Of a stretch of 64,000 nucleotides of DNA, positions 375-38,165 are shown piece after piece. Made by a program: the position numbers and the translations under genes. Numbering within the stretch: position 1 is the stretch's first letter; every line of letters starts with the position of its first letter. The stretch is taken from positions 18,233 to 82,232 of the forward strand of contig JBFMCO010000022.1 of the NCBI GenBank assembly GCA_040754495.1, given 5' to 3'. The notes under the pieces were generated by a model, which was not told the DNA's origin, made no database searches, and worked only from the letters and a program-made list of their open reading frames with translations. The stretch is from Candidatus Micrarchaeota archaeon. GTDB lineage: Archaea > Micrarchaeota > Micrarchaeia > Anstonellales > Bilamarchaeaceae.

Positions 375-540
375 GGGCCCATAGCTCAGCTTGGTAGGGG
401 GGCCGCTCTTATTATAAGAGAGGCCTCGCCGTAAGCGACGGACTCTTATCTTTTGGAAAGGCACTTACAGCCCGTTTTGGGCCGCCTTTTCCCAAAAGGC
501 GGAAATCCGTGTGTCGAGGGTTCAAATCCCTCTGGGCCCG
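375..540 (+). tRNA. tRNA-Lys(CUU) with two introns, one in the D-loop region and one at the canonical 37/38 site
   Basis: The acceptor is GGGCCCA/UGGGCCC with discriminator G. The T-arm is GAGGG-UUCAAAU-CCCUC. The anticodon stem ACGGA/UCCGU flanks the loop CUCUUA|intron|A. The 5' GGGCCCAUAGCUCAG and 3' GGUUCAAAUCCC..GGGCCCG match the archaeal tRNA-Lys pattern. The mature RNA needs removal of about 35 nt after GCUCAGCUUGGUAG and about 55 nt after position 37. Confidence 0.6.
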
Positions 541-541
541 T

Positions 542-564
542 CCCCTTTTTTAGTAAAAAAGGGG
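542..564. terminator. Perfect inverted repeat CCCCTTTTTT-agt-AAAAAAGGGG immediately 3' of tRNA-Lys; a hairpin or oligo-T terminator, or a recombination-site candidate
   Basis: Read directly: 10-nt arms with a 3-nt loop, T-rich on the tRNA strand. Confidence 0.4.
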
Positions 565-576
565 CCAAAAAACTAA

Positions 577-1545
577 TTGTTTGTCAACCCCCCGTGGTTA
601 CCATTTATCCAAAAAATCCAGCGGATTAAAAACGCGATTAGCGATAAAATATTCATGTCACAGCCCCTGCAGAAGCCCGCGCAAGAGCACCAGCGCCTCC
701 AGACCACTCCCCGCATCCGCAGGCCTCCTTTCGTGATGTGCAGGGACATCGAGCAGGTGAGGGAGGTGCTGAGGATTTACGGCGCGATGGAGATGCACCT
801 GATGATGTCCGGAATCCTGGAGAACAGGAAGGAGATCGGGAGCCTCATGTATGCTTATGACGAGACTTCGAGGCAGGCGCTCGCGCGCGCCCCGCCGATG
901 GTGGTGAGGGTCCCGCAGGGCCTTCTGGACCAGCTTGCGATAGCCGGGGGCGCGAGCGGTGCCTACGTCCCGGGGACCAATATCGTCCTCGTGTCATCGT
1001 CGCCGGCCCGTTTCCCGGACGGGACGCCGCAGAGGGTGGAGGACATAATAACCCACGAGACTCTCCACTATCTCGACTATCTCCTTCATGCCAATCGCAT
1101 GGCCTTCAGGAGCCGGGGGCGGCTTGTGAATCCGGAGCCGCCGAGATTCTTCGACGAGGGAGCGACCAACTATGCTGCCCTCCAGGTCGTCAGCGGGATG
1201 CATCTGCCCGGAAACCGGGAAGCACCTGCCAACTACGCATATCCGACGGCAGTGATGGTGGCAATCGAGATGCTCGCAGGCATCGAAAGGCTGGCTCCGG
1301 CCATGCAGAGCGGCAACTGGGAGCATGTGCAGCAGGCAATCGACCAGAAGCTCGGCCAGGGCAGCTTCGAGCGGATACTGGATTGCGGCAACGGCGCGGA
1401 AGCCATCGGGCTCATACTGGAACTGGATAACGGCCAGCCCCCCTTTATAGACAGGCAGCTTCTCGAGCGGCATCCGGTCATGAGGAGGGCGAGGCGCGGA
1501 ATCGAGGCCATGAGGCCGCCGTCCATGGCGGGCCAGGAGATATGA
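577..1545 (+). CDS. Hypothetical protein with an HExxH motif (ITHETLHYLD); putative zincin-like metallopeptidase
   Basis: 322-aa ORF. It has a lone HExxH followed by LD, the same local pattern as the C-terminal segment of the giant ORF. The start could instead be at the internal Met (MSQPLQ, about 655). Confidence 0.5.
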   Translation: MFVNPPWLPFIQKIQRIKNAISDKIFMSQPLQKPAQEHQRLQTTPRIRRPPFVMCRDIEQVREVLRIYGAMEMHLMMSGILENRKEIGSLMYAYDETSRQALARAPPMVVRVPQGLLDQLAIAGGASGAYVPGTNIVLVSSSPARFPDGTPQRVEDIITHETLHYLDYLLHANRMAFRSRGRLVNPEPPRFFDEGATNYAALQVVSGMHLPGNREAPANYAYPTAVMVAIEMLAGIERLAPAMQSGNWEHVQQAIDQKLGQGSFERILDCGNGAEAIGLILELDNGQPPFIDRQLLERHPVMRRARRGIEAMRPPSMAGQEI

Positions 1546-1616
1546 ATCGACCGGCGGTTCGCTAGCCATAAAAAGCGTCTCCTGCATATCCATTCGCCGC
1601 TCCGGGTGCGAACTAC

Positions 1617-1946
1617 ATGGCGAAGGAAAAAATCGACTGGTCACAGCCCCCCAACCCGTCACTGCCGTTTATCAGCCCGGAGAACATAGGCGAGGTCGAG
1701 AAGGAGGCGCTGGCGATGGCCAACAAGGCTATTTCTCTCCTTGAGCAGGCGATAGCAGCCTGGGACAACGCTAAGGACAAGCCGCCTGAGCTGAAAGGGA
1801 CGATTCAGAGGTACAGGCGGTTCCACGAGGCGCTGAGCGACTGGGAGAAAAGGATGCTGCAGTCCCTGGGGAAGGCGGATTTCAATGCCCGGGTGAGGAT
1901 GCTCGAGGAGTTCGTGAGGATAAGCAGGGCATACGAGGGTAACTGA
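1617..1946 (+). CDS. Small hypothetical protein (109 aa) translationally coupled to the giant ORF
   Basis: Its stop TGA overlaps the ATG of the giant ORF by 1 nt (..AACTGATGG..). Same strand, no gap. Confidence 0.5.
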   Translation: MAKEKIDWSQPPNPSLPFISPENIGEVEKEALAMANKAISLLEQAIAAWDNAKDKPPELKGTIQRYRRFHEALSDWEKRMLQSLGKADFNARVRMLEEFVRISRAYEGN

Positions 1947-37105: not shown

Positions 37106-37345
37106 ATGGAACTTCGGAAATGCGAAAGCTGCGGCATGGCTATGGTAAGGCTCTCTGACTTCGGCGGCATGAAGAACGACAACAGGTACTGCAAGCACTG
37201 CGCTTACGACAACGGCGACCTGCGCCCCAGGCACGAGGTGCGCGAGGGGATGATACTCTACTACATGAAGACCAAGGGGAAGGACCGCAGGAGCGCGGAG
37301 GAGTACGTTGACGAAGTGATGGCCGGCCAGCCCGCCTGGCAGTAG
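37106..37345 (+). CDS. Small zinc-ribbon protein (79 aa) with two CxxC pairs
   Basis: CESCG..CKHCAY. The longer listed ORF (36818) overlaps the tRNA and was trimmed to the Met at 37106. Confidence 0.5.
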   Translation: MELRKCESCGMAMVRLSDFGGMKNDNRYCKHCAYDNGDLRPRHEVREGMILYYMKTKGKDRRSAEEYVDEVMAGQPAWQ

Positions 37346-37434
37346 TGGCAGAGAGAAAAGTTTTCTGTCGCAAGGATTCCGGCGTGAAAACAACCATTTA
37401 TAATTTGTTGATGCGTTTAGCGTAAGGGATTCCC

Positions 37435-37608
37435 ATGACAGACGAAATCAAATTCCCGGCTCCTGAGGGCGGATTGGCCGTGCCGGCCGAGGTGCTTTCG
37501 GAAGCCCAGAAAATAAAGAAAGGCATCTGCCCTTCGTGCGACGGCAGCCTCGTCTTCCAGGAAGGCTGCAAGGTCTGCTATTCCTGCGGCTGGGGCGGCT
37601 GCGAGTAA
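37435..37608 (+). CDS. Very small zinc-ribbon peptide (57 aa) with CxxC..CxxC..C
   Basis: MTDEIKFPAPEG..CPSCDGSLVFQEGCKVCYSCGWGGCE. Below the ORF-track length cut-off; hand-translated. Confidence 0.35.
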   Translation: MTDEIKFPAPEGGLAVPAEVLSEAQKIKKGICPSCDGSLVFQEGCKVCYSCGWGGCE

Positions 37609-37672
37609 TTCTTGAAAAATCCCTTCGGGATTTTTATTGTTTTCCCTGCTATCCAGTTCCGATGGTGATTGC

Positions 37673-37966
37673 ATGGGGCTCAAGGAACTGAAGCCGGACA
37701 TAGTGAAGGCGTATTTCGATTTCAGCAAGCTCGTCGACAAGACTGACAAGCTCAGCCAGAAGGAGAAGGAGCTGATAGCGGTCGGCGTCTCGCATGCACT
37801 GCTTTGCAGCTTCTGCATAGAGGACCATGTGCAGAAGGCCAGGGTAGCTGGCGCGACTGAAGAGGAGATTGCCGAGGCGATACTGGTAGCCGCGAAGGTA
37901 AGGGCAGGCTCCGCGCTTACATACGCCCAGAAATATGCCTTCAGGAACGAGCCGCCCAAAGGCTAA
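37673..37966 (+). CDS. Carboxymuconolactone decarboxylase / AhpD-like family protein
   Basis: GVSHALLCSFCIEDHVQKA matches the CxxCxxxH motif of the AhpD core. The opposite-strand ORF 37417..37959 was rejected. Confidence 0.65.
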   Translation: MGLKELKPDIVKAYFDFSKLVDKTDKLSQKEKELIAVGVSHALLCSFCIEDHVQKARVAGATEEEIAEAILVAAKVRAGSALTYAQKYAFRNEPPKG

Positions 37967-37996
37967 TTAATCCCTTTTACCAAGTATTTTTTCATT

Positions 37997-38165
37997 GGGC
38001 TCGTAGCTCAGCATCTTGAGGGAAAAGCGCCTAACAATGGGTTTTGGCCCAGCTTTTCCCAAAAGCTGGAAGCAGAGCACTCGCCTTGCAGTTTCCTCGA
38101 AACCGGAAACGGGAAACAGGAGACCGGAACGCGAGGGGCCGGGGGTGCGAGTCCCCCCGAGTCCA
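37997..38165 (+). tRNA. tRNA-Ala(UGC)-like with two introns (D-loop and canonical 37/38) and an atypical T-loop (UGCGAGU)
   Basis: Acceptor GGGCUCG/CGAGUCC with discriminator A. GCUCAGC|about 56-nt intron|UGGAAGCAGAGC. Anticodon stem CUCGC/GCGAG, loop CUUGCA|about 39-nt intron|C. T-stem GGGGG/CCCCC. Confidence 0.55.

Follow-up and report, generated by a model that had tools for sequence, protein, structure and literature searches.

We report that two tRNA introns in a 64,000-nucleotide stretch of DNA from Candidatus Micrarchaeota archaeon (contig JBFMCO010000022.1, positions 18,233 to 82,232, here called the window; 61% GC) share a hairpin module that is probably the conserved end element, namely the terminal hairpin, of a family of protein-spliced tRNA introns of the bulge-helix-bulge (BHB) type present across the Micrarchaeota. 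Hand parsing of the window gives four tRNA genes with seven introns in total, and the module occurs in the 37/38 intron of tRNA-Lys and in the D-loop intron of tRNA-Ala, as a first-pass annotation of the window had claimed. Copy 1 (474-504, + strand; GTTTTGGG) comprises the stem strand CCGCC (482-486), TTTT-CCC-AAAA (487-497), the stem strand GGCGG (498-502) and a closing AA (503-504), and it abuts the 3′ splice site of the tRNA-Lys intron. Copy 2 (38040-38071, + strand; GGTTTTGGC) has the same TTTT-CCC-AAAA between the stem strands CCAGC (38049-38053) and GCTGG (38065-38069), again followed by AA. The copies align without gaps over 31 bases (474-504, G-TTTTGGG-CCGCC-TTTT-CCC-AAAA-GGCGG-AA; 38041-38071, G-TTTTGGC-CCAGC-TTTT-CCC-AAAA-GCTGG-AA), with the consensus G-TTTTGG-N-CCNNC-TTTT-CCC-AAAA-GNNGG-AA, and the four stem differences between them amount to two compensatory pairs (GC/GC versus AG/CT).

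Self-comparison of the whole window by BLAST gives the hairpin pair E = 1.4, which is chance level and, taken literally, is the outcome that the first-pass annotation had named as speaking against shared modules. Several more specific analyses reverse that outcome. First, a strict scan for the architecture (a 5-bp stem, TTTT..AAAA and the complementary stem) finds two sites, just these two, against 0.0 in 100 shuffled sequences. Second, a covariance model (R1) run over the 64 kb recovers both copies at E of about 1e-12 (62.2 bits and E = 2.6e-12 for copy 1; 59.4 bits and E = 1.2e-11 for copy 2) and no other strong match. Lastly, a scan of prokaryotic genomes with the pattern TTTTGGNCCNNCTTTTCCCAAAAG, which has 21 specified bases (one genome per species, 185,579 species, 596 Gb, both strands), returned 22 loci where about 0.3 were calculated by chance. 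All 22 are labelled Micrarchaeota, Micrarchaeia, Bilamarchaeum or simply archaeon, in genomes of 38-63% GC, and one of those labelled just archaeon, LFW-283_2, is the type genome of Bilamarchaeum dharawalense (PMC8561730). Each of the 24 exact copies (the 22 loci and the two of the window) lies inside a tRNA gene, and of the 16 weaker model matches that were checked, none is farther than about 250 nt from a tRNA 5′ end or T-loop. In about 230 kb of sequence, not one of the 40 copies examined is clearly outside tRNA genes, no whole genome having been searched with the model; viral contigs held no matches to the module.

The pairing of the stem points in the same direction. The strand GNNGG lies outside the search pattern, and in each of the 24 copies it is the complement of CCNNC; the copies fall into four stem variants (GC, AG, CG and AA). 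When 43 copies were aligned to the model, 99.7% of cells were paired and changes on both sides were present in five of the nine pairs (48 cells); the observed covariation score was reached by 0 of 500 shuffles, and slid controls paired at 36-63%. An explanation of the similarities between these introns as an artefact of chance or low complexity, which the whole-window BLAST value of E = 1.4 for both of the proposed module pairs would favour, is extremely unlikely: for the hairpin it is refuted by the two sites against 0.0 in the strict scan, the 22 phylum-restricted matches in tRNA genes and the covariation, and its bearing on the second proposed module, a GAAAC repeat, is taken up with that repeat below.

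Comparison with other genomes, whose loci or contigs carry labels such as L001, L020 and L087, places the two window copies in a larger family. By hand parse at least 13 tRNA species act as hosts, and these include Lys, Ala(UGC), Ala(GGC), Glu, Asp, Thr(GGU), Thr(UGU), Phe, Ser, Gly, Met, Arg(CCU), Arg(UCU) and Arg(GCG); the insertion sites are the D-loop, position 37/38 and the T-loop (59/60), and the module occurs in both orientations. Where it closes the intron (B form, ...GNNGG-AA|exon), as in both window copies, it stands at the 3′ end; in the A form, found in L007, L010, L012, L014, L018 and L021, its reverse complement opens the intron as exon|(TT)CCNNC-TTTTGGGAAAAG-GNNGG-N-CCAAAAC.... 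Introns of full length (130-160 nt) have A at the 5′ terminus and B at the 3′ terminus (L001, L011, L013, L015 and L017, with L004 intermediate), two hairpins of about 28 nt each in mutually inverted orientation. At the 5′ splice site, hairpin A reads CCNNC-TTTTGGGAAAAG-GNNGG and then CCAAAAC, and hairpin B, at the 3′ splice site, is GTTTTGG and then CCNNC-TTTTCCCAAAAG-GNNGG-AA. Between them lies a core in which CCAAAAC pairs with GTTTTGG (P1), xGGCTGTTG pairs with TAGCAAGTCGG (P2), AAAACCC-loop-GGGTTTT forms one hairpin (P3) and ATTTTTGC..GCAAAAAT forms another (P4), with some covariation in A, B and P3. The strands of P1 and P2 are almost invariant in the five full-length introns, the first strand being CAAAAAC-xGGCTGTTG and the second TTAGCAAGTCGGTTTTGG, and P4 of L001, L013 and L015 contains GA/GA internal loops (GC-GA-GCC..GGC-GA-GC).

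The short B forms, both window copies included, retain B together with (T)CTTTTGGGAAA, a 5′ remnant complementary to the B loop. Orthologous sites occupied by a full-length intron in one genome and a decayed one in another, namely Asp 37/38 (L017 versus L010) and Glu 37/38 (L015 versus L004), indicate that the short forms are deletion derivatives. The window itself yielded no full-length copy to an nhmmer search with a profile of the full-length core. Rfam holds no family that matches the module or the full-length intron, the motif string is in no relevant paper of the literature searched, and the searched passages of papers on ARMAN-2 tRNAs and on Bilamarchaeum mention no such intron family; the family has apparently not been described before in that literature.

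Introns and their junctions were parsed by hand and then checked against intron-less orthologues, except that the Lys 37/38 intron is a hand parse alone. Intron-less alleles are available for the Ala D-loop, tRNAi 9/10 (tRNAi being the initiator tRNA-Met), Ala 37/38 and Met 59/60 sites, where removal of the segment gives a canonical tRNA, and they pin the predicted splice junctions of the window introns. At the Ala D-loop, L089 and L090 have GCTCAGCAGCAGAGC in place of the window's GCTCAGCA|TCTTGAGGG...GCTGGAA|GCAGAGC, and a BLAST alignment with L089 ends at 38013, at the start of the window intron (38014-38071, + strand). This junction is the one predicted from a BHB motif with the central 4-bp helix TCAG (exon)/CTGG (module), in which hand analysis gives one bulge of 3 nt and another of 2-3 nt, the 3′ cut falling 2 nt past hairpin B. 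At the other end of the family element, comparison puts the 5′ cut 0-2 nt before hairpin A in the Met D-loop intron of L018 and the Ala T-loop introns of L020 and L089. The AG/CT stem variant of the D-loop copies matches the conserved exon sequence GCTCAG. We also asked whether the CTGGAA that closes the Ala module could belong to the D-loop of the tRNA itself, which would put the 3′ splice site ahead of CTGG, and rejected this, as there is no BHB motif there and the intron-less alleles read AGCAGCA.

These positions suggest how the hairpins may act. Published work on ARMAN-2 describes its tRNAs as highly disrupted and its epsilon2 endonuclease as cleaving relaxed BHB motifs, and the splicing endonuclease of Micrarchaeum and Mancarchaeum is there given as the epsilon2 type of broad specificity (PMC3239211, PMC5829648). 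The complementary intron ends might zip up as the outer BHB helix, directly adjoining the splice sites, or alternatively each terminal hairpin might stack on the exon helix as a half-motif; either way bulges of 2-3 nt, 0-2 nt from the foot of the hairpin, would be shown to a broad-specificity splicing endonuclease. The family could then amount to a splice substrate that is portable and self-sufficient, and that many tRNA positions tolerate whichever way it is oriented. The hairpins may thus serve splice-site presentation. A shared protein-binding site, the other suggestion of the first-pass annotation, is conceivable as well, and the extreme conservation of the hairpins beside the predicted splice sites would be in keeping with the splicing machinery recognising them.

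A second explanation of the same conservation is that hairpin and core are kept for binding of a specific protein or as a functional, possibly circular, small RNA, in which case the spread would be old and the conservation would reflect function and not splicing geometry. This would account for 21 or more invariant nucleotides in genomes of 38-63% GC while the intron middles diverge, for P1 and P2 strands that are nearly invariant with P3 and P4 kept as hairpins, and for the orthologous Asp and Glu sites with full-length or decayed copies; moreover, one of the other introns in these genes harbours an RNA with a function, the C/D-box small RNA (sRNA) of tRNA-Met. We nevertheless consider it unlikely, given that Rfam has no match, no recognisable protein-binding motif such as a kink-turn was seen, and the element would have to work in both orientations, which is hard to square with a sequence-specific contact between RNA and protein. 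In addition, short derivatives without the core keep the splice-site hairpin, which points to a role in splicing.

Several observations weigh against reading the module as the splice-site hairpin of a BHB intron family. The search pattern fixes 21 positions, so that the true variability of the module is underestimated, and the weaker copies found by the model do vary. BHB geometry alone gives no reason for the invariance of 21 or more nucleotides over so wide a range of GC content, and there is not one G-U cell among the 43 aligned copies, a complete lack that is unusual for constraint at the RNA level alone. RNAfold prefers a rod in which A is paired with B, or the 5′ remnant with B; within one full-length intron, on the other hand, the stem of A is not that of B, and each hairpin is perfectly complementary to itself, which implies selection on the individual hairpins and favours separate hairpins over the rod. 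Minimum-energy folds of the 37/38 introns of Lys and Ala show a relaxed motif, with 3/4 pairs in the central helix formed with the exon and bulges of 2-3 nt, and at the nucleotide level the junction coordinates carry ambiguities of 1 nt.

Intron content differs between close relatives of the window genome. One of them is L087 (GCA_964540525.1, CAZIND010000109.1), whose DNA is 95-97% identical to window positions 43072-48157 and which thus represents the same or a sister species; even so, it differs from the window in its set of tRNAi introns. At tRNAi site 9/10 the window and L020 have an intron while L087 and L088 have none, and at site 30/31 L020 and L087 have one while the window and L088 have none. 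The window, L002/L091, L003, L020 and L006 have the Ala D-loop intron, and L089 and L090 lack it; in L089 the neighbouring protein is 98% identical to that of the window. An A-form family intron in the Ala T-loop of L020 and L089 (R1, E = 0.0016) is absent from the window. At Met 59/60 an intron like that of the window is found nowhere else; L018 has an A form there, and L020, L002 and L091 have no intron. Ala 37/38 is intron-less in L002, L003 and L091. Such whole-intron differences between near-identical genomes call for several recent, precise gains or losses, and introns are thus gained or precisely lost on short time scales in this group. Evidence of this type also lies behind the inference of intron transposition in the Thermoproteales (Fujishima 2010, via PMC4033280 and PMC4090602) and the heterogeneity model for Caldiarchaeum (PMC3293823). 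With regard to the reuse of intron cassettes across unrelated tRNAs, from which the first-pass annotation had suggested mobile or recombining elements, the suggestion holds up for the hairpin module (one family, varied tRNAs and positions, presence or absence of whole introns) and not for the GAAAC sequence, which is a simple repeat. As for the route by which the family spread, intron transposition, gene conversion and loss via copies of spliced tRNAs could each have contributed.

Spread at the DNA level has its own candidate mechanism, in which the family would be a non-autonomous DNA transposon of the MITE or PATE type (miniature inverted-repeat or palindrome-associated transposable element) whose terminal hairpins or inverted repeats serve as recognition sites for a transposase or recombinase with its gene at another locus, and which survives in tRNA genes only because its ends happen to be spliceable. 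The termini are indeed inverted repeats of about 28 nt, copies lie in both orientations, the stems switch from one Watson-Crick pair to another with zero G-U, as expected of constraint on DNA, and a 3′ fragment of a tRNA is duplicated beside tRNAi. Like MITEs and the palindrome-associated elements of the IS200/IS605 group, the family is short and non-coding, and its ends bear inverted repeats or nearby hairpins. Elements of the IS200/IS605 group leave no target-site duplication, and none was found here at the three junctions with a known intron-less allele, a finding that tells against the MITE or PATE reading. Unlike all of these elements, the family is confined to tRNA genes, with 40 of 40 examined copies in or beside one and none clearly intergenic, and it coincides with predicted spliceable introns. 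The flanking exons share no conserved target sequence by hand comparison, for which reason an IS200/IS605-like mechanism was rejected. It has no known partner transposase, and none was seen adjoining any copy in loci of 8 kb, no search having been aimed at transposases; viral contigs were likewise free of copies. On balance we regard a DNA transposon as quite unlikely, even though a gain of an intron in Caldiarchaeum has been tied to a mobile element bearing a recombinase (PMC3293823).

It is possible, and we suggest it tentatively, that the hairpin is the end of a structured, Micrarchaeota-specific RNA element of 130-160 nt (A, P1/P2, P3, P4 and B), a mobile BHB intron in its own right that brings its own splice-site hairpins, inserts into tRNA genes in either orientation and decays to short forms such as the two window copies. 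If this is true, the perfect Watson-Crick palindromes would be a sign that its spread includes a DNA-level or fold-back step, the conserved core might let the intron, once excised and probably circular, serve some separate function, and the single-intron differences between the window and GCA_964540525.1 would make the mechanism of intron gain directly testable. A sharply defined hairpin at the splice sites, the two orientations and the full-length and decayed copies at orthologous sites are features that lend themselves to experiments.

The closest precedent is in the Thermoproteales, where intron transposition has been put forward to account for similar introns in unrelated tRNAs (Fujishima 2010, via PMC4033280 and PMC4090602). 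There, as here, many tRNAs carry several introns, gain is inferred to be rapid, and similar introns occupy tRNAs of different identity and at different positions. In contrast to that case, all matches of the present family are in the Micrarchaeota, a DPANN phylum, and the endonuclease, going by published work, is epsilon2 in Micrarchaeum and Mancarchaeum versus (alpha-beta)2. The Micrarchaeota family also differs in having a sharply conserved palindromic terminal hairpin, both orientations and a structured full-length form of 130-160 nt, and in being common to many genera of very different GC content. It is a second, independent case of the transposed-tRNA-intron phenomenon, in a DPANN phylum. 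The disrupted tRNAs of ARMAN-2 and Micrarchaeum belong to the same phylum and share the D-loop, 37/38 and 59/60 sites, the relaxed BHB motifs and the broad-specificity enzyme, although the searched passages of the papers that describe them contain no conserved intron sequence family (PMC3239211, PMC5829648). At the tRNA-Thr locus of Caldiarchaeum subterraneum, too, intron presence varies within the population or among close relatives and tRNA fragments lie beside intact genes; a 1.8-kb element encoding a recombinase is implicated there, whereas no such element was seen in the Micrarchaeota, where the intron itself is the repeated unit (PMC3293823). A 2014 review still calls the mechanism of archaeal tRNA intron gain unknown (PMC4090602).

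The GAAAC sequence behaves differently from the hairpin. It is a tandem repeat of period 7, GAAACNG, for which Tandem Repeats Finder gives 4.4-4.6 copies, and a search for (GAAACNG)3 with up to three mismatches finds 11 matches in the window against 0.11 expected. The matches lie in the Ala 37/38 intron (38091-38129, + strand; a GTTTCC head and about 4.4 heptads, from the repeat scan and Tandem Repeats Finder), in the 3′ trailer of tRNAi (42911-42972, + strand), inverted in the trailer of tRNA-Met (36972-36990, − strand), between convergent genes (31732-31757, + strand) and at one coding site (44292); the three arrays outside the introns come from the repeat scan and alignment. The first-pass annotation had put the repeat in the Ala 37/38 intron, beside the initiator tRNA and in part in the Met T-loop intron, and all three placements are borne out: the copies at 38099-38129 and 42933-42972 agree at 84% over 32 nt, above all of 300 shuffles (BLAST E = 1.4), and the exact 13-mer GAACCCGAAACGG is common to the GAAAC copies and the Met T-loop intron. 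What had been called a spacer beside the initiator tRNA does contain the repeat, but it is the 3′ trailer of tRNAi, read antisense to the tRNA. Pairwise local alignments among the GAAAC sites and the Met 59/60 intron beat all or nearly all of 300 mononucleotide shuffles, the shared sequence being of low complexity.

The idea that GAAAC is an intron cassette did not survive, given that the heptad repeat also lies in trailers, in intergenic DNA and in unrelated metagenome contigs. A metagenome scan with a 23-nt version of the repeat matched 64 unrelated contigs of 32-74% GC, with arrays often inverted, and no tRNA was seen in the roughly 150 nt around each match, no tRNA search having been run on the contigs. 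The corresponding places in L020 and L002 are without the repeat. The GAAAC module is an ordinary, slippage-prone simple repeat of 7 nt, present in two young, lineage-specific introns. Like other simple heptanucleotide tandem repeats it has period 7, a copy number that varies (window, L089, L090) and occurrences in unrelated genomes, often inverted. Unlike plain repeats of this kind, two of the arrays here sit in predicted BHB introns and add to the outer helix: in both GAAAC introns of the window (Ala 37/38 and Met 59/60), fold and hand analysis place the GAAAC unit as one side of the outer BHB helix. About four heptads are present in the orthologous Ala 37/38 intron of L089, and that of L090 is longer, with a single ACGGGAAACCG unit beside a P4-like GCGAGCGAAGCGAGC; with low confidence, we infer that the window intron may be a slippage expansion inside a decayed family intron. 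An explanation by low complexity and chance, which the recurrence of GAAAC in unrelated organisms supports and the real enrichment in the window (11 versus 0.11) opposes, holds for this repeat solely in the sense of a shared simple repeat, not of a transferred cassette.

Beside tRNAi, the tRNAi trailer together with the last 22 nt or so of the tRNA is duplicated in tandem at 42789-42853 (+ strand; 65 nt at 86%, E = 2.6e-13). This copy and 42932-42996 make up a 143-nt tandem duplication that copies the tRNAi 3′ end, a T-run and the GAAAC array. The contigs of L087 and L088 stop at or inside tRNAi, as though assemblies break there. We considered whether an element had integrated between the two copies of the tRNAi 3′ end and rejected this, as only about 120 nt separate them.

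Of the four tRNA genes, that of tRNA-Lys(CUU) (375-540, + strand) was parsed by hand from its acceptor stem GGGCCCA/TGGGCCC, T arm GAGGG-TTCAAAT-CCCTC and anticodon loop CTCTTA|A. Its D-arm intron (398-433, + strand), also from the hand parse, is a hairpin, GGCCGCTCTTAT-T-ATAAGAGAGGCC, and no family member by sequence, with no match to model R1, and its 37/38 intron (449-504, + strand) is a short B-form member whose 5′ motif TCTTTTGGAAAGGC (449-462) pairs with the module in the minimum-energy fold to give a BHB-like rod. Directly 3′ of tRNA-Lys, at 542-573 (+ strand), a perfect hairpin of A type, CCCCTTTTTTAGTAAAAAAGGGG then CCAAAAAAC, scores 18.5 bits with R1 (E = 0.039, minus strand) and may be a terminator hairpin or else a weakly related form of the module; it is followed by a GTTTGTCAACCCC motif that is also found 3′ of tRNA-Glu in L004.

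The hand-parsed gene for tRNA-Met(CAU) (36746-36960, + strand), with orthologues in L020, L002, L018 and L091, has two introns. The one at 59/60 (36866-36946, + strand) is lineage-specific, contains GAACCCGAAACGG and GGAAACCG, and in the minimum-energy fold forms a 3-4-3 BHB with the H helix TTCG/CGAA. That at 37/38 (36784-36843, + strand) lies outside the shared modules and carries the C/D-box sRNA, whose boxes, read by hand, are C CGAUGA, D′ CUGA, C′ CGAUGA and D CUGA; the intron is conserved in L018, L020 and L002/L091. The D′ guide pairs with the anticodon-loop sequence CUCAU, by hand, with the fifth nucleotide upstream of D′ opposite C34, which implies that this sRNA probably guides 2′-O-methylation of C34 (Cm34) in cis.

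The gene for tRNA-Ala(UGC) (37997-38165, + strand; hand parse), with G3:U70, has two introns, of which the D-loop one is a short B-form family member whose junction is confirmed by intron-less orthologues. The mature tRNA has a D-loop, AGCAGCA, that lacks G18-G19, and a T-loop, UGCGAGU, in which position 55 is G; this pair of loops is kept in seven genomes (window, L002, L003, L020, L089, L090 and L091), and the Rfam tRNA model does not detect the window gene. The fourth gene, for tRNAi (42976-43080, − strand), was found by an Rfam tRNA match and hand parse and has a 30-nt intron (43042-43071) after position 9, its junction confirmed by the intron-less allele of L088.

Standard tools recover little of this: ARAGORN returned one spurious tRNA-Gly and the Rfam tRNA model part of tRNAi only, and in intron mode ARAGORN mis-assigns Lys and Ala. 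Because ARAGORN and Rfam together missed or mis-called three of the four tRNA genes in the window, a model of the intron family would improve tRNA annotation and completeness estimates for metagenome-assembled Micrarchaeota genomes. Running ARAGORN after brute-force excision of 49,032 candidate introns was too permissive for junction assignment and was set aside.

Protein and DNA comparisons agree on the origin of the window. The product of a 1626-amino-acid open reading frame (31778-36658, − strand) is 82-91% identical to its L020 counterpart and 71-89% to that of L002, gene order near tRNA-Met and tRNA-Ala is kept, and all named best matches of an AlaX protein are from Micrarchaeota; with the DNA identity of L087, these place the window in the Micrarchaeota (DPANN). 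An origin in the Thermoproteales, at which the multi-intron tRNAs had hinted, was rejected on the evidence of the genome scan, gene order and protein matches. Five window proteins had no exact counterpart in the genome collection. Elsewhere, a stand-alone C/D-box sRNA candidate lies at 39585-39638 (+ strand; snoPyro_CD, 28.8 bits, E = 0.0078, below Rfam thresholds). Positions 38622-39540 and 46523-49124 are paralogous repeated coding segments of 73-89% identity, with internal tandem repeats of 15-51 nt, and 1946-22471 (+ strand) is a single open reading frame for a giant protein of 6841 amino acids.

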